Of a stretch of DNA of 32,000 nt, positions 6,153 through 16,464 are shown piece by piece. Numbering within the stretch: the stretch's first letter is position 1; the number at the start of each line of letters is the position of its first letter. The notes under the pieces were generated by a model that had not been told where the DNA came from, ran no database searches, and saw nothing but the letters and a program-made list of their open reading frames with translations. The DNA is from Novosphingobium aureum. GTDB lineage: Bacteria > Pseudomonadota > Alphaproteobacteria > Sphingomonadales > Sphingomonadaceae. A program made the translations under genes and the position numbers. Location of the stretch: the NCBI RefSeq assembly GCF_015865035.1, contig NZ_JADZGI010000001.1:88593-120592 (forward strand), read 5' to 3'.

Positions 6153-6229
<77 letters not shown>

Positions 6230-6399
6230 GCTTTTCTGGGATTTTTGCACCCTCGGAGCTGGGGCAGTCTTGGCCGGGGAAACGGCTAGGGAAAACATTT
6301 CTAGGCTGAAGTGATTCCTATGGGGACTCAGAGTCGCTATCCAGTTGCTCTACTCGCCTTGAGCCGATAGAACAAAACGGCAATGCGAAGGGAGCGGCT

Positions 6400-8046
6400 G
6401 TGAAATTCATCGAGGACCAGACGGCCCAAAAGCTGCGCGGCGGGTACTACACGCCTCTGGATCTCGCCTCGTTCATCGCGCGCTGGGTCGGAGAGATCAA
6501 TCCCGACAAGGTCCTCGAGCCGAGTTGCGGTGATGGTGCATTCTTTCAGGCCATGTCCGATGTTGGCGGCTTCGAGAAGTCGGCCCTGACTGGCTTCGAG
6601 CTTGACAGCGACGAGGCGGGCAAGGCCACCCGTCGAGCGAAGCAGCTCAACCTTTCGAAGGCCGCCGTCCGCTCCGAGGACTTCCTCGGCTGGGCAATCG
6701 AGAACAGGGCGAAGGGCGGTGAGCGATTCGACGCCGTGGTGGGCAATCCCCCATTCGTTCGATACCAGTTCCTGCCTCCGCAATTTCAGGTCCGGGCCGC
6801 CACGATCTTTGACGAGCTCGGGCTCAAGTTCACGAAGCACACCAACGCCTGGGTGCCGTTCATACTCGCCTCAATGTCGCTGCTGCGCCCCGGGGGGCGT
6901 TTGGCGATGGTGGTCCCGGCCGAGATCATTCACGTCACTCACGCCCAATCGCTCCGCAGCTATCTCGGCAAGGAGTGCCGGCGGCTTGTCATCATCGACC
7001 CGGAAGAGCTCTGGTTCGACGGTACGCTGCAAGGCGCTGTTATCCTCATGGCAGAGAAGCGCAGCAGCCCGAGGCAGAAGGCCGAAGGGCTCGGCATGGT
7101 GCCCGTCCGTGGACGAGAGTTCATCCGGCGTTCACCATCCGAAGTCTTCGCAGAGCCGCAGTCGATCAACGGCAAGACGGTCGCTGGCAAATGGACCCGG
7201 GCGCTGCTCGACCTCGAGACCCGTGACCTCTTCGACGAGCTCGAGGCTCATGCCGAAGTACATCGCTTTGATGACATCGCGCGCGTGGACGTGGGCATCG
7301 TCACTGGCGCGAACAAGTTCTTCCTCGTCCCTGACGCGACCGTCGAAGCCTACGGCTTAAGCAAGTACGCGCACCCGATGTTCGGGCGCAGCGAACACTG
7401 CCCGGGCGTGATTTATGACGAACAACAGCACGCAGCGAACGCCGAGAAGGGAAGCCCAACCAATTTCCTCTGGTTCGATGACGCGCCCAACAAGATGGCT
7501 AAGAGAGCGCGGCAGTACATCGAGCGCGGCGAAGCCGAGAAGCTGCACACTCGCTACAAGTGCCGCATTCGCGCCCCTTGGTACAAGGTCCCCTCGGTTT
7601 ATTCGACCGAAGTGGGAATGCTCAAGCGTTGCCACGACACACCCCGCCTAATCCTCAATAAGATTGGCGCGTACACAACCGACACGGCTTACCGCATTCG
7701 CACCAAAGAAGCGGACGGTAAGCGGCTGGTCGGTTGCTTCATCAATCCGCTCACGGCCCTCAGTGCCGAGCTCGAGGGCAGGCACTATGGCGGCGGTGTC
7801 CTCGAACTCATTCCATCCGAAATTGAGCGTCTGGTCATTCCGATGCCCGAGAAGGTCGAGCTCGACTTAGCCGAGCTCGATAACTCCATACGGAACCGGC
7901 CCACGCACGAGACGCTCGAGCGACAGGGCGAGGTAGTCCTCGGGGCACTTGGCATCTCGAAGGCGAAGCAAGCTAGCGCACTCGAGGGTTGGCGAAAGCT
8001 TCGCAACCGGCGGCATAGGACTTCGACGGAAGCGGTTCCGGCCTAG
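6400..8046 (+). CDS. gamma-class N6-adenine DNA methyltransferase (Eco57I/TaqI-like MTase domain + C-terminal target-recognition domain)
   Basis: GTG start with AAGGGAG RBS. GGYYTP (aa 14-19), motif I EPSCGDGAF (aa 40-48), motif IV NPPF (aa 116-119, nt 6745-6756), and the C-terminal HYGGGVLELIPSEIERLVIP typical of TaqI-like TRDs. Confidence 0.85.
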   Translation: MKFIEDQTAQKLRGGYYTPLDLASFIARWVGEINPDKVLEPSCGDGAFFQAMSDVGGFEKSALTGFELDSDEAGKATRRAKQLNLSKAAVRSEDFLGWAIENRAKGGERFDAVVGNPPFVRYQFLPPQFQVRAATIFDELGLKFTKHTNAWVPFILASMSLLRPGGRLAMVVPAEIIHVTHAQSLRSYLGKECRRLVIIDPEELWFDGTLQGAVILMAEKRSSPRQKAEGLGMVPVRGREFIRRSPSEVFAEPQSINGKTVAGKWTRALLDLETRDLFDELEAHAEVHRFDDIARVDVGIVTGANKFFLVPDATVEAYGLSKYAHPMFGRSEHCPGVIYDEQQHAANAEKGSPTNFLWFDDAPNKMAKRARQYIERGEAEKLHTRYKCRIRAPWYKVPSVYSTEVGMLKRCHDTPRLILNKIGAYTTDTAYRIRTKEADGKRLVGCFINPLTALSAELEGRHYGGGVLELIPSEIERLVIPMPEKVELDLAELDNSIRNRPTHETLERQGEVVLGALGISKAKQASALEGWRKLRNRRHRTSTEAVPA

Positions 8047-9203
8047 TTGATCTCTATGACGAAACGCGATTGCGGGTTGGCTGGCTCGTAGAGTCTTAGG
8101 TCGCGTCCGCGCAAACCCTGTTGCTTTATGTGACCGGTAGCGCCTCCCCAATGGAGGCCCGTAGTATAGTTGCCCTGCCCAGCAGCCCAAGCGGGTTTGT
8201 GGCTCAGCGATAGGTCGAAGTCGCCAACGTATACGCCCGCTATCACTAGCGAGATGGGAACATCAGCGACATCCTTCTGCTTGGCAGCATCGTAGGTCCA
8301 ATTCAGTTGCGCGAAGACCTGATTGCGGAAGTAGGTCTTTTGGTCGATCGTCTGCCCATTCACTTGATATCCCGCTTGAGTCAGGCGGAGAACCCCGGGT
8401 ACGTTGCTTCCCTGATTCAGTTGCAGGTCTGACGAGGGGAGGTTGGGCTTTACCCAGACCAACTGACCGAAAGTTGGAGGGGCCGAAACGGTGGTTTGAC
8501 CGCCGCCCGCAACCGGGGGCTTCGGCTTTCGAGCCTTTTTCTTTGGCGGTGCAGTTAGGGGAAGCGCGATGGGCGACTTGCTTGTTTGTGCCCCCTGCTT
8601 CCCAGCGCCGTAGGCGGTTTGCGTCTTGGGGTTTCGCTCGTCCTCGAGCAATCCCTGCTTGAGCAGATCGACAATCTGGCGGCCGGAGGTAATCGGAAAA
8701 CAGTGTAGCGGATGATTGGCAACTAGGTCCGCGAAGCCGTCGAGAAAACCGTCAACGAACGCTTTGTCGGAAGCATCGGCGTGATCGAGCTCGAGATCGG
8801 CTCCTGCTTCGATGTTATTGTACAATCCCGGATGAGTCAGGTTCGCGCTGCCGATAATTGCGCGTGAGCGATTGGCGGTAGAAGCGAGATACACCTTGGG
8901 ATGGAAGATGCGACTGCGAGTAGCCGTGTCCACACCGTACAGTTGAATGCCGAGTTTTAGGAGGGCAGCCGCCGCTTGAGCAGTTGTCGAGCCGTTGCGG
9001 ACACCGATGAAGGCTCGAGTATTGCCCGCCACAGGAACAAGAGCCGCCGACACAGCGCTAACACCGGCCGAATTGGCGAACGCCGAAGAGATGAGCAGGT
9101 CCGTCATCCACGGCTCGCCAGCGAGCGAAATTAGTTGGTCTGCGTGTTTATGCCCTGCCACAATGGGCTGAAAGATCGGTCGAACTTGCGCCATGAATTC
9201 CAC
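8043..9203 (-). CDS. phospholipase-D (HKD) family nuclease with Lys/Pro-rich linker and C-terminal putative DNA-binding barrel; candidate restriction endonuclease
   Basis: Single HKD-type motif IFHPKVYLASTANRSRAIIGSANLT (H101 at nt 8903-8901). Linker APPKKKARKPKPPVAGGG. The C-terminal ~140 aa are beta-rich. The start is GTG 9203 or, more likely, ATG 9194. Confidence 0.75.
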   Translation of the reverse strand: MEFMAQVRPIFQPIVAGHKHADQLISLAGEPWMTDLLISSAFANSAGVSAVSAALVPVAGNTRAFIGVRNGSTTAQAAAALLKLGIQLYGVDTATRSRIFHPKVYLASTANRSRAIIGSANLTHPGLYNNIEAGADLELDHADASDKAFVDGFLDGFADLVANHPLHCFPITSGRQIVDLLKQGLLEDERNPKTQTAYGAGKQGAQTSKSPIALPLTAPPKKKARKPKPPVAGGGQTTVSAPPTFGQLVWVKPNLPSSDLQLNQGSNVPGVLRLTQAGYQVNGQTIDQKTYFRNQVFAQLNWTYDAAKQKDVADVPISLVIAGVYVGDFDLSLSHKPAWAAGQGNYTTGLHWGGATGHIKQQGLRGRDLRLYEPANPQSRFVIEIN

Positions 9204-9258
9204 TCTGTTGCGAGTGGTATGGCTAACCTCGAAGTCACTTATTTGCCAGCCCCTTAGG

Positions 9259-9441
9259 CTATACAGCGTAGGGGCTCGTCTCGCTTACTCGATTGGCGCA
9301 GGGGACACACAGTCGATGGTGCAAGCCTTCGCTCTCGAAGGGCTTGCGGCACCGGAGGCAAGGCCGGGTCTCGGTCGGCATGGGCTCGCCATGCACGTCC
9401 CGGCGCTTGCGCCCCATATGCGTCAGGCCCGCGTTGCTCAC
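9259..9441 (-). CDS. small zinc-ribbon-like protein (CxxC...CxxC)
   Basis: PCLRCRKPFESEGLHHRLCVPCANR. The GTG start overlaps the upstream stop (GTGA at 9438-9441). Confidence 0.5.
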   Translation of the reverse strand: MSNAGLTHMGRKRRDVHGEPMPTETRPCLRCRKPFESEGLHHRLCVPCANRVSETSPYAV

Positions 9442-9770
9442 GCGACCTCAAGCATCGCCAGCATTGTGCCGTAGGCCCGGCGCTGGCCTGCGTCCATCGT
9501 GTCGCGGACGAGGTGCTGGTTGTCGGGCGAGCGGAAAACGTCCACCCACACTTCCCGCTCCCCGGGCTGGCGGATTAGCCCGAAGAAGGCACCGAGCTCC
9601 TCGACCGCCACGCCGTAGATGTTCGAGACGCGCCGGACGAGCTCGAGGGTGGGCCAGCGGTCCTTCGCTGTCGCGATGGCCCCGGCGAGCGCCACGGTGT
9701 GCGCCCTCCGGGTCCGTTCATCGAAGCGGGTCATGTAGTGGTCGAGGACCGCCTCCTCGGTCAGCTCCAT
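9438..9770 (-). CDS. hypothetical island protein
   Basis: 110-aa ORF, translationally coupled on both sides, with no domain I recognise. Confidence 0.5.
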   Translation of the reverse strand: MELTEEAVLDHYMTRFDERTRRAHTVALAGAIATAKDRWPTLELVRRVSNIYGVAVEELGAFFGLIRQPGEREVWVDVFRSPDNQHLVRDTMDAGQRRAYGTMLAMLEVA

Positions 9771-10135
9771 TGTGCGCTCTTCTCGAACACGGCGGATTGC
9801 TTCGAGCGCATCGCCGCCATCTCGGCAGCGCGCTCGCCCTTCGCCAGCTCGATCATCACCGGGTCGATGCCGGAATGGTCGAGGAGGGCCTTGCTCACGC
9901 TCACACCGGTCTGCTGCGCGATCTCGCCCGCACGCACCATAATCGCATCGGCGTAGTCTGCGGCCTTATAGAGCGGCTCAGCTTGTCCTGCGGCGATCTC
10001 GGCTGCGTTCTTGCGGATGGCGACCGAGCCGCCCTTCAGGATCACTGCGGTTGCGCCCTTCACGGCGGGCACGTCCACGGTCGAAATCTCGTTCACCGTC
10101 ATATCGCGGACGATCATCTTCTTGGGCAGGGTCAT
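9761..10135 (-). CDS. hypothetical island protein
   Basis: 124-aa ORF. Its start overlaps the upstream stop (ATGA at 10132-10135). Confidence 0.5.
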   Translation of the reverse strand: MTLPKKMIVRDMTVNEISTVDVPAVKGATAVILKGGSVAIRKNAAEIAAGQAEPLYKAADYADAIMVRAGEIAQQTGVSVSKALLDHSGIDPVMIELAKGERAAEMAAMRSKQSAVFEKSAQWS

Positions 10136-10398
10136 TGTGCGGGTTCCTTTTCGGTAGGCAGGGAGGACAGGTCATTATCGACCTGCCGGGCTATCAGGGA
10201 TGCGACCGTCTGGGCCTTCGCCCGGGATTGGCGCGGCTGGTTCAGGTAGCGGAGGAGCTCCGGCGCATTCAGCTCAAGGTCGAGCAAGAGCGTGGTGCGG
10301 AATTGGTGCATCAGCCGGGATGCCGGGTGGGCCTCGGCCCCGTACCTCTGCCGATGCGCAGCGAGGAATGCCCGGTCGGCATCGAAGAGGGCGGTCAT
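10132..10398 (-). CDS. hypothetical island protein
   Basis: 88-aa ORF. ATGA overlap with the upstream small ORF at 10395-10398. Confidence 0.5.
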   Translation of the reverse strand: MTALFDADRAFLAAHRQRYGAEAHPASRLMHQFRTTLLLDLELNAPELLRYLNQPRQSRAKAQTVASLIARQVDNDLSSLPTEKEPAQ

Positions 10399-10520
10399 GC
10401 CTCCCCGGCGGCCGCGAGGGCAGCGGAGAAGCGCTCCGCTGCCTCGACCTTCGCCTTGGCCGCGTCCCGGATTGCGTCTGGCTCCGGCCCGTCAGGCCGC
10501 TGCTGCTTGAAAATTCCCAT
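10395..10520 (-). CDS. hypothetical 41-aa protein (below the ORF-track cutoff)
   Basis: My translation: MGIFKQQRPDGPEPDAIRDAAKAKVEAAERFSAALAAAGEA. It is preceded by a strong RBS (ggAAGGAGacgacaATG), and its stop overlaps the next start. Confidence 0.5.
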   Translation of the reverse strand: MGIFKQQRPDGPEPDAIRDAAKAKVEAAERFSAALAAAGEA

Positions 10521-10896
10521 TGTCGTCTCCTTCCGTTCCGGTGGGGTTGCCCAAGGACGCGCGCACCGACGCGATCACGTCCCTTGCCTCGTTCGGCTCG
10601 AAGCCCGCGCCCTCGAGGTCGCTGCGGCGCAGTCGCCAGAATTGTTCGTCGAAGGCGGGCCGCTCGGCCTCGTCCCGGGCCTTCATCAGCACCCAGCGAT
10701 CATAGACGCTGGCGGGCTCGCGCTCCCCGCGTATCAGGCGGTCCTCGTCCCATAGGACGGCAAGCTCGGGGCTGGCGGGGGCCTTCTCGCCCAGCTCGAA
10801 CAAGGCCGCGATGCGCAGCGCGCGCCGCTCGTCCGGGGTCATCAACCGATAGCCCCCGGCGAAGGCGAGGAGGTCGAGGGCGCTGTCCCTATTCAT
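10492..10896 (-). CDS. hypothetical island protein
   Basis: 134-aa ORF. Its ATG overlaps the terS-like stop (ATGAATAG). Confidence 0.5.
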   Translation of the reverse strand: MNRDSALDLLAFAGGYRLMTPDERRALRIAALFELGEKAPASPELAVLWDEDRLIRGEREPASVYDRWVLMKARDEAERPAFDEQFWRLRRSDLEGAGFEPNEARDVIASVRASLGNPTGTEGDDNGNFQAAAA

Positions 10897-11386
10897 TGTC
10901 GATCACCCGGGCCGGAGCCGGAAGCTGCGGGCGGAGATTGCTGGCCATCTGGAGAGCGACCTTCGCCACGGCATCGCCAAGCACCCCGGCATCGACCGTG
11001 TGCGTCACCTGCTTGTTCACCGCTATGCCGTGCGTCTCCCGATAGGCGGGGAGCATCGCCCGGGCTCGGAGCTCGAGCAGGCGGTCGCTATACTTGCGGA
11101 CCGTGCCGACGATCTTTTCCTTGTGGCGGCCGCCGTAGATGGGCTCCTCCCAGCCCTCCTGCGCGCGTCGGTAAATCTCCGCCTCGATGCTGGCCTCTGC
11201 GGCTTCGACCGCTTCCTGCCATTGCGCCGCAAACTCGGGGTCCCGTTCGCGCTCGTCCTTGAAGGTCTGCACCGCACCGTACCGGCTGCTGGCGCGCGGA
11301 CTGGCAGCGCGGGCGGCCCGGACGAGGATGCCGTGGCGGGACAGCTCGAGGAGGAAGAGGCGCTTGCGGCGATCGGTCAGCTTCAT
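10889..11386 (-). CDS. terminase small subunit-like HTH protein
   Basis: N-terminal HTH region (LTDRRKRLFLLELSRHGILVRAARAAS), then DPEFAAQWQEAVEAAEASIEAEIYRRAQEGWEEPIYGG...VRKYSDRLLELRARAMLP. I recall this pattern from phage small-terminase/HTH proteins. Not verified by search. Confidence 0.55.
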   Translation of the reverse strand: MKLTDRRKRLFLLELSRHGILVRAARAASPRASSRYGAVQTFKDERERDPEFAAQWQEAVEAAEASIEAEIYRRAQEGWEEPIYGGRHKEKIVGTVRKYSDRLLELRARAMLPAYRETHGIAVNKQVTHTVDAGVLGDAVAKVALQMASNLRPQLPAPARVIDNE

Positions 11387-11434
11387 GGCGAAACGATAGC
11401 TGGCGACCGTTGGCGAACGAACGGCGGAGCATTG

Positions 11435-11481
11435 ATAGCACCAAATAGCACCATAGTCGCTATTCTTGCTATTTGTACTAT
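11435..11481. promoter_or_regulatory. imperfect ~47-bp palindromic operator (3x ATAG(CA) facing 3x (G)CTAT) in the divergent intergenic region
   Basis: ATAGCAccaaATAGCAccATAGtcGCTATtcttGCTATttgtACTAT, centred near 11458. It lies 49 nt from the terS-like start and 32 nt from the RHH-RAMA start. Confidence 0.55.
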
Positions 11482-11512
11482 TAGGTGATTCGACAGGCGA
11501 TAGGAGGCCGAT

Positions 11513-11905
11513 ATGGCGACAGTGGAAATCGACTTCGATGTGTACAAGGAGCTCACCGCCCGGCGGGCGAGCGAGACGACAACCTACAATGATGTGATTC
11601 GAGAGCTCCTCGGCATGGATGCGGAGCCGGAACCGGCGAATGCGGACGAAGCTTCCTCCGGCGGTCTCGAAATGAAGGGCGTGTTCCTGCCCAACGGGAC
11701 GCAGCTCCGCGTCACCTACAAGGGCCGGACCTACTCAGCAGAGATCAAGGATGGCGCTTGGATCGGCAGCGACGGGAAACAGCGGAAGACCCCTTCCGAG
11801 GCCGCATGCGCTATCACTGACACGAACGTCAACGGCTGGCGCTTCTGGAAGGTGAAGCGGCCCAGCGATACGAGCTGGAAGGTCCTCAATTCCCTCCGGC
11901 CGTAA
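11513..11905 (+). CDS. SeqA-N-terminal-like ribbon-helix-helix + RAMA/DUF4357-like domain protein (candidate island regulator)
   Basis: RBS TAGGAGG. The N-terminus MATVEIDFDVYKELTARRASETTTYNDVIRELLG parallels the SeqA N-terminus (IEVDDELYSYI...SDILRRML). The C-terminus YKGRTYSAEIKDGAWIGSDGKQRKTPSEAACAITDTNVNGWRFWKV fits the RAMA-type pattern (SPS.AA....NGW.FW). Confidence 0.7.
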   Translation: MATVEIDFDVYKELTARRASETTTYNDVIRELLGMDAEPEPANADEASSGGLEMKGVFLPNGTQLRVTYKGRTYSAEIKDGAWIGSDGKQRKTPSEAACAITDTNVNGWRFWKVKRPSDTSWKVLNSLRP

Positions 11906-12120
11906 TGGTGTCGCGTTTCCCCTCGGCTTCCTTGAATTAACTGGCATCGCGTGGAAGCCCACGAAATGCGATAGTCTCGGCGGAGGGGGCTGGGCCTCGG
12001 AGAGGAAGAGCTCTGGCAGCCGGTCCAGCGATCTCGCGCCCGCGCGCGCGTAGGCCGAACGGCGGCAACGGCAGGCGGCGGGAAGCCCAATCAGGTGGAA
12101 GCCGCACAACAACCTCGGCA

Positions 12121-12391
12121 AGCGACTATCCGACTGGAAATCCGACTGCGCTAACTCCCTCTCTCTATTGTTCTTTTCTTCTATCCAGTCGACTAATCGG
12201 ATTAGTCGGATATTTTCGACAAAGGCCCGATCAGTTGATGGAGGCCCTATTTGGGCTTTGCGCATCTCCGAACCAAAAGTGTCCGACTACCCCGAATATC
12301 CGACTGAGATGGGCCTAAGGCCATGAAACCAGAGGATTTCTGCACAGTCGGATACAAAATGAAATCCGACTGTGCGCTGCGAAGCGACTAT
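12121..12391. repeat. iteron array / putative island replication origin
   Basis: ATCCGACTG occurs at 12128, 12140, 12298 and 12364 (direct) and at 12345-12353 (inverted). ATCCGACT is inverted at 12204-12211 and GTCCGACTA occurs at 12281. A perfect palindrome cgactaatc-g-gattagtcg lies at 12190-12208, next to the pyrimidine/AT-rich tract 12156-12185. AGCGACTAT brackets the array at both ends (12121, 12383). Confidence 0.7.
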
Positions 12392-14865
12392 TCGTCTGGC
12401 TTGACCCACTCAGAACGGCCATCGAAACCCCAGTCACCGCCGCCATACCGCTTCATCCATTCTGATCGCGCATCTGCCAAGTCAGGTGGAAATATCCACC
12501 CCCGGTTGGTCGTTGCGCCCGGTTGGATGAATCCCGATTGGAAGCCCTGCTTTCGCAAGAAGCGGCCCAGCGACGCATCAGACACCCTCATAGTCGGTGC
12601 CGCAAGCCGCATCAGATCGAACAGGCCGGGCCGTTCAAAGGTGCCGTTGGAACGTCGAAACCTGTCCAGCTCCTCCGCTTCCTCATCGCTGCCGTCGATC
12701 TTTACCTTCCACGGCTCGACCGTTCCCGGCATCACCCCGCTTCTGAGAACATCGAGCCACCATTCTTCCTGCGGCTTCAGGCTTTGCTCTTTCTGGTCAC
12801 GCAGGGCGTCGGTCTGCGGTATCTCCCGAACCTCGTAATCGGATAGGTCCATCGTCATCAGGTAGTGAAGCAGCGCCTCCCGGCCGCCCTCATCCATCGC
12901 CTGATGCAGAGCGCGAAAGTAGGCCTTGTCCTGTTTCTTCCCTTCGCCAACGTCGAGAATGAAGTAGCGCCGTTCGTCTGCCCCGGCCGGCACCACCCAG
13001 TCATCGTTCGATGCCATAATCAGGTGGACATAATTCGGCGCAACCTCAGCATCTATGCCCTTCCCCTCGACAATGAGTGTATCCTCGGTCACGAGGGTTT
13101 TCAGGGTGCTCTCGTGCTGCTTGTCGCCCGCATAAAAGGCCTCGTCAGCGAATAGGGCGACACAATCGCGCAGGTGTGCGTTGAATTGGCCCACCAGATG
13201 CTTCGCGCTGCTGATGTGCAAAAAATGCCGACCCCATAGCGAACCGAATATCTGCGCCACCGAGCCCTTGCCCGTACCGCGCCCGCCACGCAGCACAACA
13301 GCGACATGCCCCTGCTCGCCCGGGTTTTGAACTGCGCGCGCCATCCATCGAATGAGGTACTGGAAATGGTCATTGTCACCCTGACAGACGTTGTCTCGCA
13401 GGTGCTCGAGAAAAGGCTCGTGCTCATCACCCGGCAAGGCCTCACAAGCGAAGCCCTGCCACAGATTATACGCCTCTGGAACTTCCCTGCCAGGCGCGAA
13501 GACAATGGTCTCGTACTGACGACGCATGGGGTGTTCGAGCCACCACTTGCCAGCGGGCGTGTAAGTCGGGTTGCCGTCCTTCGTCTCACCGCTCTGGACC
13601 TTGATATTCATGTAGCGATTTCGGAAGTCCTCGAAGCTCTGCTTCGAGATACGCGTTCGCGGCCGGGCAAGATTGCGATCTAATACCTCGCCAACCACGC
13701 GGCACTTGCCGCCGATGTCGCTGATCACCGCGTGACGCTCATTGAGCTTGCGCAACATCGGTTCGGAGACCTCCTCCCGAGCACGCTGAATCTGCCTTGC
13801 GGCATAGGCGGTCGAACGCTTCTGATTCAAAGTGTGGGCGGAGATACCGAAGTCTGGATCCAGCAACACAGCAGCGATGGTGTCGTCATCGCACCCCGCC
13901 CGGACGAGCTCGCAACATACGGCAAAAGTGACCTCAGACCGCGAATCATAGCGCAACTGGTCATCTGGATCGTCGCCCTGCACAATGAGCATCTTTGTGC
14001 CCGCCGTCACCGCTTCCGGCAGCTCGTCGAGGTCCTTCAGCCGGGGGAGGTTGCCGCTGATCTTGACAGTCGGCGCGACCAATCCACCGTCATCGCTCTG
14101 TACTCGGGGGGCCGGAGTGAAGATGCCGAGACCATAGATGTGCTCCTCGTCATCGTGGCGCTGGACGACCGATGCGAGGGCCGGAACTCGTCCAGCCTTT
14201 CGCTTCTTCTCATTGGGCCAATTTATGGTGCCGGGCAGGCGGAGGATGCGATCGCAATTGTGGCAACTATCCCCGCCCAGCAGGATTTCGAGCTGCTGGT
14301 TGTAGGCTTCCGCTTCCTCGGCCGCCGGAATGTTGCCGCCGATATACAGCGGGTCATCGAGGCGCCACAGAGCTTGAAAGCCTCCGCCACTGTCGATGAT
14401 GAGTGTGGGCTCAGGTTTGAATTCGCGCAGCAACGGCAAGATGCGGGCTCGCTGCGCCTCAATATGCCTGACCTTCTTTTCATCGGGCAGGTCCGCTAGC
14501 TTCTTCGGGTCCACGTCCACATGAAGCCAAGCGAGGTCCTCCACGTCCTCCTTCTTCGCCTTCGAGCGCAGCTTTGTGCGCGCCGGGTTGACCATGAAGT
14601 ACAGGTTCATCTTGTCGGCTGACTGCTCATGGAGCCAGTCCAAGCACTCGGTCGCGGTCTTGGGGCCGAAGGTCTCGGTCTTTGTCGGTCCGCCGTCCGG
14701 CGGGATAGCCGTGAGCGTCCACGGACCTTCGGGCCTGAACCACTCTAAGTGATCGAGAGCATCCTCGAGCTTGGCCTCGGGCAGGTTCGGCTCAACGCTT
14801 CGCTCTTCGTCCCCGGTGGGGGAGACAGTAAGGTCATTCACGGAAAGTCTCCCTTTCCAAGCCAA
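12388..14865 (-). CDS. primase-helicase fusion (AEP/RepB-type primase N-terminus + D5/P4-alpha-like SF3 helicase C-terminus)
   Basis: N-terminal NLYFMVNP...WLHVDVD...IIDSGGGFQALW (AEP motifs). C-terminal Walker A VVLRGGRGTGKGS and Walker B-like LFADEA. The ORF-track start is TTG 14865; GTG 14841 has a better RBS (AAGGGAGA). Confidence 0.9.
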   Translation of the reverse strand: MAWKGRLSVNDLTVSPTGDEERSVEPNLPEAKLEDALDHLEWFRPEGPWTLTAIPPDGGPTKTETFGPKTATECLDWLHEQSADKMNLYFMVNPARTKLRSKAKKEDVEDLAWLHVDVDPKKLADLPDEKKVRHIEAQRARILPLLREFKPEPTLIIDSGGGFQALWRLDDPLYIGGNIPAAEEAEAYNQQLEILLGGDSCHNCDRILRLPGTINWPNEKKRKAGRVPALASVVQRHDDEEHIYGLGIFTPAPRVQSDDGGLVAPTVKISGNLPRLKDLDELPEAVTAGTKMLIVQGDDPDDQLRYDSRSEVTFAVCCELVRAGCDDDTIAAVLLDPDFGISAHTLNQKRSTAYAARQIQRAREEVSEPMLRKLNERHAVISDIGGKCRVVGEVLDRNLARPRTRISKQSFEDFRNRYMNIKVQSGETKDGNPTYTPAGKWWLEHPMRRQYETIVFAPGREVPEAYNLWQGFACEALPGDEHEPFLEHLRDNVCQGDNDHFQYLIRWMARAVQNPGEQGHVAVVLRGGRGTGKGSVAQIFGSLWGRHFLHISSAKHLVGQFNAHLRDCVALFADEAFYAGDKQHESTLKTLVTEDTLIVEGKGIDAEVAPNYVHLIMASNDDWVVPAGADERRYFILDVGEGKKQDKAYFRALHQAMDEGGREALLHYLMTMDLSDYEVREIPQTDALRDQKEQSLKPQEEWWLDVLRSGVMPGTVEPWKVKIDGSDEEAEELDRFRRSNGTFERPGLFDLMRLAAPTMRVSDASLGRFLRKQGFQSGFIQPGATTNRGWIFPPDLADARSEWMKRYGGGDWGFDGRSEWVKPDE

Positions 14866-14917
14866 GGTGATGGTTAGGGCCGTCCGACTTGCGTCTTCAG
14901 GCCGGGCGGCCCGTCAC

Positions 14918-15133
14918 TCAGGCGGCTTGAGGCTCTTCGTGGCGAGCATCGCGGCGGCTCTTCAACCAGCGGTCGATCTCACTCTTGACCCAGACAACAC
15001 GGTTCGGCCCGAGGCGTACCTGCTTCGGGAAGTCGTGCGTTTCGTCTCGGATGTAATTGTAGATCGTCGGCCTACTCAGCCGGGTCAGTTCGGAGACCTC
15101 GGAAATCGTGAGCAGTATTTGTCGCTGGGCCAC
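14918..15133 (-). CDS. alpA: AlpA-family HTH regulator / excisionase-like protein
   Basis: ILLTISEVSELTRLSRPTIYNYIRDETHDFPKQVRLGPNRVVWVKSEIDRWL. GTG start with GAGGAGGG RBS. Confidence 0.85.
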   Translation of the reverse strand: MAQRQILLTISEVSELTRLSRPTIYNYIRDETHDFPKQVRLGPNRVVWVKSEIDRWLKSRRDARHEEPQAA

Positions 15134-15137
15134 AATG

Positions 15138-15174
15138 CCCTCCTCTAAAGGCGGATATTCGCATCTGAGGAGGG
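15138..15174 (-). promoter_or_regulatory. RBS-sequestering hairpin between int stop and alpA start
   Basis: On the mRNA, CCCUCCUC (15174-15167) can pair perfectly with the alpA Shine-Dalgarno GAGGAGGG (15145-15138) across a 21-nt loop. The anti-SD starts 1 nt after the int TAG stop. Confidence 0.5.
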
Positions 15175-15175
15175 C

Positions 15176-16294
15176 CTAAGGAGTTTCGACCGGGGATAGG
15201 GAAAATTGTATTGCGCTATCCCCGGTCAGCGCGTGCTTTTTCTCTCTAGAGCCCTGTTTGTTCAGCAGTTTCTTAGCCCATAAATCGACCGCATCGCGCT
15301 TCTCTCTCATATAATCGTGCGTGTCGTAGATGCCGCCCACGCCGGGGATGAGGTGACCGAGCAGTTGCTCCGAATGGAGGTGGGGTATGCCCAACTCCGA
15401 CATTCCAGATTTCACCGAGCGGCGAATGTCGTGGACTGTCCATGGCTCGAGCGGCGGCAAACCGTCCTTCTCGCCTAGCTCAGCGATCTTGACATCAAGC
15501 TGCAATTTCGCCTTCGAGAAACCGCTTATCGGTCTGTCCCCTTTGTCGGTGGGGAACAGATGGTGGGTCTTTTCGATCTTCTCGGGGAGGGCCTTGTAGC
15601 TGGGCAAATCTTTGATGATCGCCACGGCCGGGTCCGAAAGAGGATAGGTGTGCGTCTTGTCGGTCTTGTAATGCCATGCGGGGACCGTCACGCATCGCTT
15701 CTTCATATCGAGCCAGTCGGTGTTGAGATTTGCGACCTCGGAACGGCGCTGCCCGGTCAGGATAAGTAGCTGAATCACGCGACCGTACCGATAGCCGAGT
15801 TCCTCGGCTGCATCCCAAACGCGCCGGAGTTCATCAACCGATAGCGACCGAGTGCGGGCCTTGTAGGCGAATGCCTTCTGCGCCTTCTTAGTCTTGATGC
15901 TGACCACCGGATTGACCGCGATCATCTCCTCTTCGATTGCCCAAAAGAAGAGAGTGCGGAGACGCTTGCGGACCTCCCGCGCGGCCGAAAGGCCGCTGAG
16001 TTCATACCTCTCTTCTGCCCTCAGCTTCTTTGCCTTCTCGGCTCGCTCCCGTGCGCGTTCGATGCCCTGCTCGCGGACCTTCGACAGGAGGGCGGAAACG
16101 TCGGCGCGGCCGATTTCGTCTATGACCCTCCCTGTCCAGCGAGGTAGCACATAGTTGTCGAAGTACGCCTTTGTGGACTTCCATTCCTTCTGCTCGAGCT
16201 TGGCGTATTCGTCGATGAACCGCTCGACGATGGCCTCGAAGGTGCGAGCATTTCGCTCAATCGCCTCGGTCTTACGCTGCTGGGCCGGGTTCAC
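15176..16294 (-). CDS. int: tyrosine integrase (P4-type core), apparently lacking the N-terminal arm-binding domain
   Basis: Catalytic region HDIRRSVKSGMSELG...LLGHLIPGVGGIYDTHDY. The only available start is GTG 16294, with the SD-like GAAGGGG directly abutting it. See the finding on truncation. Confidence 0.8.
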   Translation of the reverse strand: MNPAQQRKTEAIERNARTFEAIVERFIDEYAKLEQKEWKSTKAYFDNYVLPRWTGRVIDEIGRADVSALLSKVREQGIERARERAEKAKKLRAEERYELSGLSAAREVRKRLRTLFFWAIEEEMIAVNPVVSIKTKKAQKAFAYKARTRSLSVDELRRVWDAAEELGYRYGRVIQLLILTGQRRSEVANLNTDWLDMKKRCVTVPAWHYKTDKTHTYPLSDPAVAIIKDLPSYKALPEKIEKTHHLFPTDKGDRPISGFSKAKLQLDVKIAELGEKDGLPPLEPWTVHDIRRSVKSGMSELGIPHLHSEQLLGHLIPGVGGIYDTHDYMREKRDAVDLWAKKLLNKQGSREKKHALTGDSAIQFSLSPVETP

Positions 16295-16418
16295 CCCCTT
16301 CTCTGCAAGATCGAGGGCATCACGCGCTGCATCTCGGGCCTTTGTAAATCCTCAGAAAGTCGAGCTTTTCCTATCGTGGCTAGACTTCGAGAAACCCGGC
16401 TAGATTGGGTAGCTCAGA

Positions 16419-16464
16419 CCTCCGAAGGCAGAGGCCACAGGTTCGAATCCTGTCGGGTGCGCCA
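16419..16464. repeat. attR: 46-bp direct repeat (displaced 3' part of tRNA-Arg)
   Basis: Identical to 6184-6229. It is preceded by gggtagctcag, which matches the tRNA D-arm segment 6160-6168. Confidence 0.9.

Follow-up and report, generated by a model that had tools for sequence, protein, structure and literature searches.

The window analyzed here, a 32,000-nucleotide stretch of Novosphingobium aureum DNA (contig NZ_JADZGI010000001.1 of assembly GCF_015865035.1, positions 88,593 to 120,592 of the forward strand), contains a pair of convergent genes that encode a DNA methyltransferase (MTase) and a nuclease and whose 3′ ends share 4 bp. We conclude, with a probability of roughly 0.8, that the pair is a two-gene Type II restriction-modification (R-M) module in which a nuclease of BfiI architecture is combined with an M.Eco57I-type MTase, and that the module is cargo of a phage satellite integrated at a tRNA-Arg gene. 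A first-pass annotation of the same DNA had proposed that this combination of a phospholipase D (PLD) nuclease with a B3-like domain and an N6-adenine (m6A) MTase may be an undescribed R-M or defense subtype. The open reading frames (ORFs) and the motifs that it quoted for both proteins were all present where they had been placed; however, the nuclease has the architecture of BfiI, and the system is of an ordinary Type II kind. The exchange of the MTase class (m6A versus the N4-cytosine class of BfiI) is a change of partner and not of the kind of system. The pair belongs to an uncharacterized but abundant family of BfiI-architecture Type II R-M systems and does not constitute a new defense subtype.

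The nuclease probably starts at the ATG at position 9194, since most of its homologs are 383 amino acids (aa) long. It contains a single HKD motif, and the motifs HPK (residues 98-100), GSAN (115-118) and PPKKKARKPKPP (216-227) as well as the C terminus RFVIEIN were confirmed. H98, K100, N118 and E129 aligned one-to-one with H105, K107, N125 and E136 of BfiI, which have been named as its catalytic residues (PMC4081073), and these four positions were invariant across 42 homologs, down to 30% identity. Single-sequence searches gave weak matches, namely PLDc_2 under the Pfam cutoff (E=3.8e-5) and BfiI structure 2c1l (E=7.5e-4), and DISARM DrmC and other PLD models aligned with the nuclease around the HKD motif alone. 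A profile of the nuclease family matched BfiI (E=3.2e-11), SauUSI (E=6.7e-9) and R.NgoAVII (E=4.5e-3) in the Protein Data Bank (PDB), the match to BfiI being confined to nuclease residues 35-144. The full-length protein was modeled by AlphaFold2 (AF2) with a mean predicted local distance difference test score (pLDDT) of 85.9 and a predicted template modeling score (pTM) of 0.81; pLDDT exceeded 90 across residues 1-180. Foldseek placed BfiI (2c1l) at the top of the PDB matches of this model, with an E value of 4e-12 and 410 aligned columns that spanned both domains. SauUSI was second best, and Nuc, NucT, Zucchini and R.NgoAVII (4rct, E=3.9e-6) were found as well; the E values of the PLD-fold matches to BfiI, SauUSI, Nuc and NucT ranged from 4e-12 to 1e-5. 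Profile and fold searches thus both had BfiI as the best match, in agreement with the single-HKD PLD nuclease with a linker that had been claimed from the motifs.

The PLD domain is closed by an acidic LEDER stretch (residues 182-186), in which D185 and E186 are nearly invariant, while the linker after it varies. Residues 192-201 and 223-236 of the linker had pLDDT values below 50 and were the sole disordered stretches of the nuclease model. When the C-terminal domain was searched alone, the top Foldseek matches were the N-terminal domain of EcoRII (EcoRII-N; 3hqf and 1na6, TM scores of 0.50-0.56), and further matches were obtained with TEM1-B3, BfiI, ARF, At1g16640, VRN1 and RAV1. The top matches consisted solely of B3, EcoRII-N and BfiI C-terminal (BfiI-C) pseudobarrels, which is the outcome anticipated when a comparison of this domain with BfiI-C, EcoRII-N and plant B3 domains was suggested.

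The MTase matched the Pfam families N6_Mtase, Eco57I and M_Eco57I_C (PF22837), the last with an E value of 1.1e-95 and 320.7 bits against a cutoff of 27; the match extended over profile positions 1-271 of 283 and MTase residues 260-529. The PADLOC MTase_II model PDLC03267 covered the protein end to end (E=3.6e-199). The order of the motifs (X, I, IV, followed by the recognition domain) is that of the gamma class. The earlier assignment to a TaqI/Eco57I type holds for the catalytic domain but not for the recognition domain, which had been described as TaqI-like and is of the M.Eco57I type; the solved structures of the TaqI and BseCI MTases matched the catalytic half alone (residues 8-228). M.Eco57I has been described as a monomeric gamma-MTase with a degenerate CTNNAG specificity that hence methylates both strands of the asymmetric Eco57I site (review, PMC3874165). 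M.Eco57I is reported to accomplish this alone, and the same behavior of the window MTase, if it applies, would explain why one MTase suffices. The window MTase is identical (100%) to an annotated protein of Novosphingobium sp. YJ-S2-02. In large protein searches, the window MTase and that of an Eco57I-like Pseudomonas locus gave hits with generic names alone, and none of these names indicated a specificity.

The genetic coupling of the two genes was followed in genomes and metagenomes. Nuclease homologs adjoin an MTase of the same family in Rhodobacterales, Sphingomonadales and Verrucomicrobia, on an unassigned 609-kb metagenome contig and on a small Roseobacter plasmid. The 4-bp tail-to-tail overlap was present in most of the loci examined and was kept down to about 35% nuclease identity, with unrelated surrounding genes. 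In a scan of one genome per species, queried with the closer nuclease sequences, the MTase lay beside the nuclease at all 16 loci at which the latter was full-length or nearly so. An MTase-seeded metagenome scan yielded at least 554 relatives among 600 candidates, and the best 80 loci were classified. At least 52 of these had a PLD+B3 nuclease as the partner of the MTase, and in 7 its place was taken by a Type IIG enzyme of about 1000 aa that resembles Eco57I; the nuclease was interrupted by a contig end or a frameshift in 5, and 16 had too little flanking sequence or a partner that was not found. These counts, together with those from the genomes, bear out the proposed pairing with a gamma-class m6A MTase, but they run counter to the view that the pair is unusual: a PLD+B3 nuclease is the commonest partner of this MTase family, and the two were adjacent at every genome locus with a full-length nuclease. 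When all ORFs of at least 120 aa within 4 kb of the pair were clustered, no neighbor family was found in more than 5 of the 80 loci; thus, judged by the genomic neighborhood as a proxy, no nucleoside triphosphatase (NTPase) or other third component is conserved, as had been claimed for the NTPase. One lineage has an operon in the order R, C (HTH_3) and M, which is the classic control layout of Type II R-M systems. The convergent arrangement, the co-inheritance, the forms of decay and the absence of a third gene are the signature of a two-gene R-M module. The contexts of the pair differ: a small plasmid copy in relatives adjoins parAG, while many loci lie in ordinary chromosomal surroundings without mobile-element genes.

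Several individual loci, cited here with our own locus numbers, deserve a brief description. A nuclease fragment corresponding to residues 113-342 occurs in Roseovarius marisflavi (L024:6001-6693) with no MTase nearby, and at one metagenome locus the MTase is intact while the nuclease next to it is frameshifted (L093:1850-2964). The PLD-B3 nuclease on a contig of Erythrobacter has a GmrSD Type IV enzyme directly upstream (L003:3696-5936); with RHS-repeat genes and a pair of HTH and M78-peptidase genes close by, the surroundings resemble a defense island.

Comparison of the 80 loci revealed two classes of nuclease. Class A, to which the window nuclease belongs, is marked in the C-terminal domain by GVLRLTQA and GQGNYTTGLHW (32 loci), and class B by TGS... 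and Q.N.MTQIHWG (41 loci). The similarity of the MTases does not follow the nuclease class. The MTase of locus L066 is 90% identical to that of the window, yet its class B nuclease shares only 38% (N-terminal domain) and 33% (C-terminal domain) identity; in the chimeric locus L003, the corresponding values are 85% for the MTase, 69% for the N-terminal domain and 31% for the C-terminal domain. Across all locus pairs, MTase identity correlated with N-terminal domain identity at a Spearman coefficient of 0.62 and with C-terminal domain identity at 0.28, and 74 locus pairs combined MTases of at least 75% identity with C-terminal domains of at most 45%. The expected co-variation of the nuclease C-terminal domain with the MTase recognition domain was therefore not seen. 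We read this, from sequence comparison, as a probable exchange of nucleases around a constant MTase and not as a lack of coupling. An MTase that is 90% identical almost certainly keeps its specificity, and both nuclease classes must then be restrained by the same methylation. Classes A and B would accordingly recognize either the same site or different subsets of a degenerate site; the latter possibility would fit the CTNNAG degeneracy reported for M.Eco57I. Two neighbor ORF families of locus L066 recur in the island of the window and in the related L012 and L020, which suggests that the same satellite family may carry either nuclease class.

The layout of the two genes, the catalytic residues, both folds, the conserved pairing and the lack of a third conserved gene are shown by the analysis, whereas dimerization, metal independence, the recognition sequence, the cleavage position and a role in phage defense are inferred. 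By analogy with M.Eco57I, the MTase would act as a monomeric gamma-class enzyme that N6-methylates adenines on both strands of its target, which is probably quasi-symmetric and possibly degenerate, resembling CTNNAG. A homodimer is suggested by the presence of just one HKD motif and by published work on BfiI; in it, two PLD domains would each contribute H98, K100, N118 and E129 to a single composite active site and would cleave without metal via a phosphohistidine intermediate. Each C-terminal B3-like pseudobarrel would bind one unmethylated site as a monomer. The enzyme would be expected to cut at a short fixed distance outside the site, as Type IIS enzymes do, cleavage would be blocked by the m6A of its partner, and an NTPase would not be required.

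This last point separates the proposed mechanism from that of the NgoAVII/CglI-type ATP-dependent enzymes, in which case the PLD+B3 protein would be an R subunit in need of a helicase-like N/H subunit whose gene would lie at some other place in the genome. R.NgoAVII does have the same PLD+B3 architecture and was among the fold matches given above, and the Pfam family RE_NgoFVII matched the nuclease weakly, with 18.4 bits. However, this score lies under the gathering cutoff of 23.8 bits, BfiI is closer both by profile (3.2e-11 versus 4.5e-3) and by fold, 80 loci from widely differing hosts share no conserved NTPase or helicase ORF next to the pair, and the pair travels as a two-gene unit, also on a small plasmid. 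Due to the lack of a conserved NTPase gene near the pair and the score under the Pfam cutoff, we do not assign the window nuclease to the NgoAVII/CglI type and consider this explanation highly improbable. The nuclease could also be an enzyme that its neighbor does not restrain, i.e., a modification-dependent (Type IV-like) or nonspecific effector that is merely linked to an orphan or regulatory MTase. PLD domains do occur in Type IV enzymes, SauUSI being the second-best fold match, and GmrSD Type IV enzymes can carry the same B3-like domain; moreover, the divergence of the MTase and that of the C-terminal domain are weakly correlated (Spearman 0.28). The weak correlation is explained equally by one constant, possibly degenerate, MTase specificity, and an m6A-dependent nuclease beside an m6A MTase would be self-toxic. 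Since the tail-to-tail overlap is kept at low nuclease identity, the partner of the MTase family is either a PLD-B3 nuclease or a classical Type IIG enzyme, and one lineage has a C-protein operon, we regard an unrestrained nuclease as improbable.

A further alternative concerns the role of the pair and not its chemistry. Type II R-M systems can behave as addiction modules, and the pair might mainly be a selfish element that stabilizes the satellite by post-segregational killing instead of acting as a barrier to phages. Its position on a mobile 10.2-kb island, and beside parAG on a small plasmid in relatives, would suit such a role. Restriction would nevertheless remain compatible with it, the molecular mechanism would be identical, and at many loci the pair is found in ordinary chromosomal contexts that lack mobile-element genes; we hold this explanation to be quite improbable. 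The Type II module with a BfiI-architecture nuclease thus remains our preferred reading, and several observations weigh against it. In its variable part, the linker is basic and rich in Lys and Pro, whereas the linkers of BfiI and NgoAVII are acidic (PMC4267654) and autoinhibitory, and regulation may therefore differ. The fold match of the C-terminal domain is statistically modest (best E=8.5e-3, TM scores of 0.45-0.56), and at the level of sequence neither a Pfam family nor any solved structure, BfiI-C and EcoRII-N included, matched this domain. PADLOC restriction endonuclease (REase) models reach only the HKD core of the nuclease (PDLC03425, residues 40-142, E=1.9e-5). CTNNAG is no more than a family-level guess for the window MTase, and no biochemical or methylome data were found for any member of the family.

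Word avoidance was analyzed in 137 kb pooled from the window and nine related loci, the recognition domains of the hosts' MTases being at least 86% identical to that of the window. The observed/expected ratios of CTGAAG (0.73), CTGGAG (0.75) and CTGCAG (0.68) were unremarkable, and only a general depletion of palindromes and of GANTC was apparent. Strongly depleted words in the pooled sequence were GACTC (0.45), GAATC (0.58), CCAGG (0.54) and many 6-bp palindromes, among them GTCGAC (0.48), GGGCCC (0.33) and ATGCAT (0.25). The CcrM methyltransferase, an enzyme widespread in Alphaproteobacteria, has GANTC as its site. No link between the depletion of GANTC or palindromes and the R-M pair was seen.

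Two additional kinds of small proteins were observed around related MTases and connect the PLD-B3 systems with those of the Eco57I type. A small conserved ORF of 60-113 aa (MA[KR]G[EK]SGR[IV]VLE[IV]DP...) is located directly ahead of the MTase at PLD-B3 and Type IIG loci alike, often with an overlap into the MTase start (L043:166-354, L005:8813-9088, L010:8767-8979 and many metagenome loci, e.g., L052, L053, L057, L074 and L079), and its product may be a regulator. This ORF is absent upstream of the window MTase (6230-6399). The other kind comprises free-standing B3-like proteins of 136-157 aa. Two of them that were examined are about 50% identical to the C-terminal domain of the window nuclease, carry the class A motif GVLRLTQA and begin exactly at the domain boundary. 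Free-standing B3 genes were found between an M.Eco57I-like MTase and a Type IIG enzyme of about 1000 aa (L026:5989-6399, L043:2050-2460 and L079:2730-3200), just past a Type IIG gene (L107:7249-7698) and immediately upstream of a class B PLD-B3 nuclease (L025:5974-6414 and L080:7889-8344). Given their orientation, they are hard to explain as simple gene remnants. A tentative extension of our reading, which we consider possible but rather unlikely, is that the both-strand, degenerate-site MTase serves as a universal protective hub with exchangeable partners (class A, class B, A/B chimeras and Eco57I-like Type IIG enzymes), which perhaps cut different subsequences of the same methylated site; the free-standing B3 proteins may, in addition, be accessory factors of a new kind that perhaps act in regulation, in targeting or in the occlusion of sites.

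The size of the family was estimated with the C-terminal domain alone. Among 1.84 billion proteins, each the representative of a 50%-identity cluster, 738 matched this domain at E<=0.001 and 273 at E<=1e-10. Most of these were PLD fusions of 380-420 aa, some were free-standing, and a few were fused to GmrSD Type IV enzymes. In P0305 (723 aa) and P0330 (555 aa), the B3-like domain is located at the C terminus of such enzymes (DUF262/DUF1524); its presence on GmrSD points to a mobile DNA-binding module common to restriction nucleases. Proteins of about 230-260 aa were considered as new fusions of the C-terminal domain and rejected, as Pfam found nothing in them and their N termini resemble those of truncated or mis-started PLD genes. 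Public names of the nuclease homologs are "phospholipase D family protein," "HKD family nuclease" and "hypothetical protein," and no description of this family was found in the literature on PLD+B3 nucleases with adenine MTases and on CTNNAG methylomes. Defense finders and NCBI label the nuclease only as a "phospholipase D family protein," and these MTases therefore probably look like orphans.

The R-M pair is located at the tRNA-Arg end of an island of 10.2 kb (6230-16464), immediately downstream of the tRNA gene (Table 1). The claim that the pair forms the cargo end of a satellite-like element is in accordance with the att repeats, the integrase, the primase and the small terminase subunit that were found. 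Several further small ORFs have no assigned function, and there are no structural genes; judged from its sequence, the gene set is that of a putative phage satellite (phage-inducible chromosomal island [PICI]-like integrative island). Tsuneonella suprasediminis (L020) has the same island with the same R-M pair at 71-97% protein identity, and part of it is present in a Sphingomonadaceae metagenome-assembled genome (L012). As the R-M pair is found elsewhere in unrelated contexts, it moves independently of the island. A 60-aa zinc-ribbon-like ORF (CxxC...CxxC; 9259-9441, minus strand; PHROG 13335, E=1e-9) stops 55 bp upstream of the nuclease start. In Oceaniradius stylonematis, a remnant of 20 codons of the zinc-ribbon ORF adjoins the nuclease (L036:6863-6922 and L037:3090-3149), which suggests that this R-M copy was derived from an island of this type.

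Table 1. Features of the R-M pair and of the surrounding island (positions in the window)
Feature	Position	Strand	Details
tRNA-Arg(CCG), integration target	6153..6229	+	3′ part (6176-6229) is one att copy
MTase, gamma-class N6-adenine, M.Eco57I family	6400..8046	+	548 aa, GTG start; from ORF, Pfam and PADLOC
MTase motif X, GGYYTP	6439..6456	+	residues 14-19
MTase motif I, EPSCGDGAF (AdoMet binding)	6517..6543	+	residues 40-48; LEPSCG.G invariant in the MTase alignment
MTase motif IV, NPPF (catalytic)	6745..6756	+	residues 116-119; G115-N-P-P118 invariant in the MTase alignment
MTase target-recognition domain, M.Eco57I type	7177..7986	+	residues 260-529; Pfam PF22837
Predicted BfiI-architecture nuclease	8043..9194	-	383 aa; alternative upstream GTG at 9203 gives 386 aa (8043-9203)
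Nuclease C-terminal B3-like domain	8046..8477	-	domain-only AF2 model, pLDDT 90.4
Nuclease interdomain linker	8478..8639	-	residues 186-239; variable, Lys/Pro-rich, predicted disordered
Nuclease N-terminal PLD/HKD domain	8640..9194	-	residues 1 to ~185; family profile and fold matches
Nuclease GSAN...NNIE segment with N118 and E129	8808..8852	-	equivalent to BfiI N125 and E136
Nuclease HxK catalytic motif, H98-P-K100	8895..8903	-	equivalent to BfiI H105 and K107; invariant in the nuclease alignment
Island small terminase subunit	10889..11386	-	165 aa; PHROG 4044, E=4.6e-30
Island primase with DUF5906 helicase-like region	12388..14865	-	825 aa; Pfam DUF5906 and RepB_primase; PHROG 1829, E=1.9e-92
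Island tyrosine integrase	15176..16294	-	372 aa; Pfam Phage_integrase, E=1.8e-17
Second att copy	16411..16464	+	repeats the tRNA 3′ part over 54 nt at 94% identity, with an exact match of the last 25 nt; far island end

If confirmed biochemically, the family would be a large and environmentally widespread addition to the very small set of characterized metal-independent PLD restriction enzymes, and it would offer new specificities as well as B3-like domains that read out N6-methyladenine. Enzyme discovery and annotation would both benefit. The exchange of nuclease classes around a near-constant MTase illustrates clearly how R-M systems evolve by modules in nature; it leaves the understanding of restriction-modification itself unchanged.

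Among the known systems, BfiI/BmrI (Type IIS; 2c1l) is the closest relative of the window nuclease and its best match in both sequence and fold. The proteins are of similar size (383 versus 358 aa), both consist of an N-terminal single-HKD PLD domain, a flexible linker and a C-terminal B3-like pseudobarrel, their four catalytic residues are found at almost the same positions, and neither has a linked NTPase gene. In contrast, overall identity is about 16%, the variable part of the linker is basic here and acidic in BfiI, and the C-terminal domain shows no detectable sequence similarity. Since sequence similarity is limited to the HKD core, we treat the window nuclease family as separate from BfiI/BmrI. 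The MTases of BfiI produce N4-methylcytosine (PMC3973309), whereas the partner here is one gamma-class m6A MTase; the DNA-binding domain of the window nuclease must therefore sense N6-methyladenine. R.NgoAVII and R.CglI share the PLD+B3 architecture of their R proteins with the window nuclease, but similarity to them is weaker than that to BfiI, and a linked N/H NTPase gene is present in those systems only; NgoAVII requires its ATPase subunit (PMC4267654). What the first-pass annotation stated on cytosine MTases, in the case of BfiI, and on the NTPase need of NgoAVII is thus in agreement with the literature. EcoRII-N and plant B3 domains (TEM1, ARF and RAV1) are the best structural matches of the C-terminal domain, although they have no sequence similarity to it, and the domain is here fused to a PLD domain and not to PD-(D/E)XK or transcription factor modules. 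The Eco57I R-M system contains an MTase of the same family (M_Eco57I_C, E=1e-95; about 545 aa), and the same small ORF precedes the MTase in related Type IIG and PLD-B3 loci while being absent in the window. The nuclease of Eco57I, however, is a nuclease-MTase-specificity fusion, whereas the window combines the shared MTase family with a PLD+B3 protein that is predicted to have no MTase activity.

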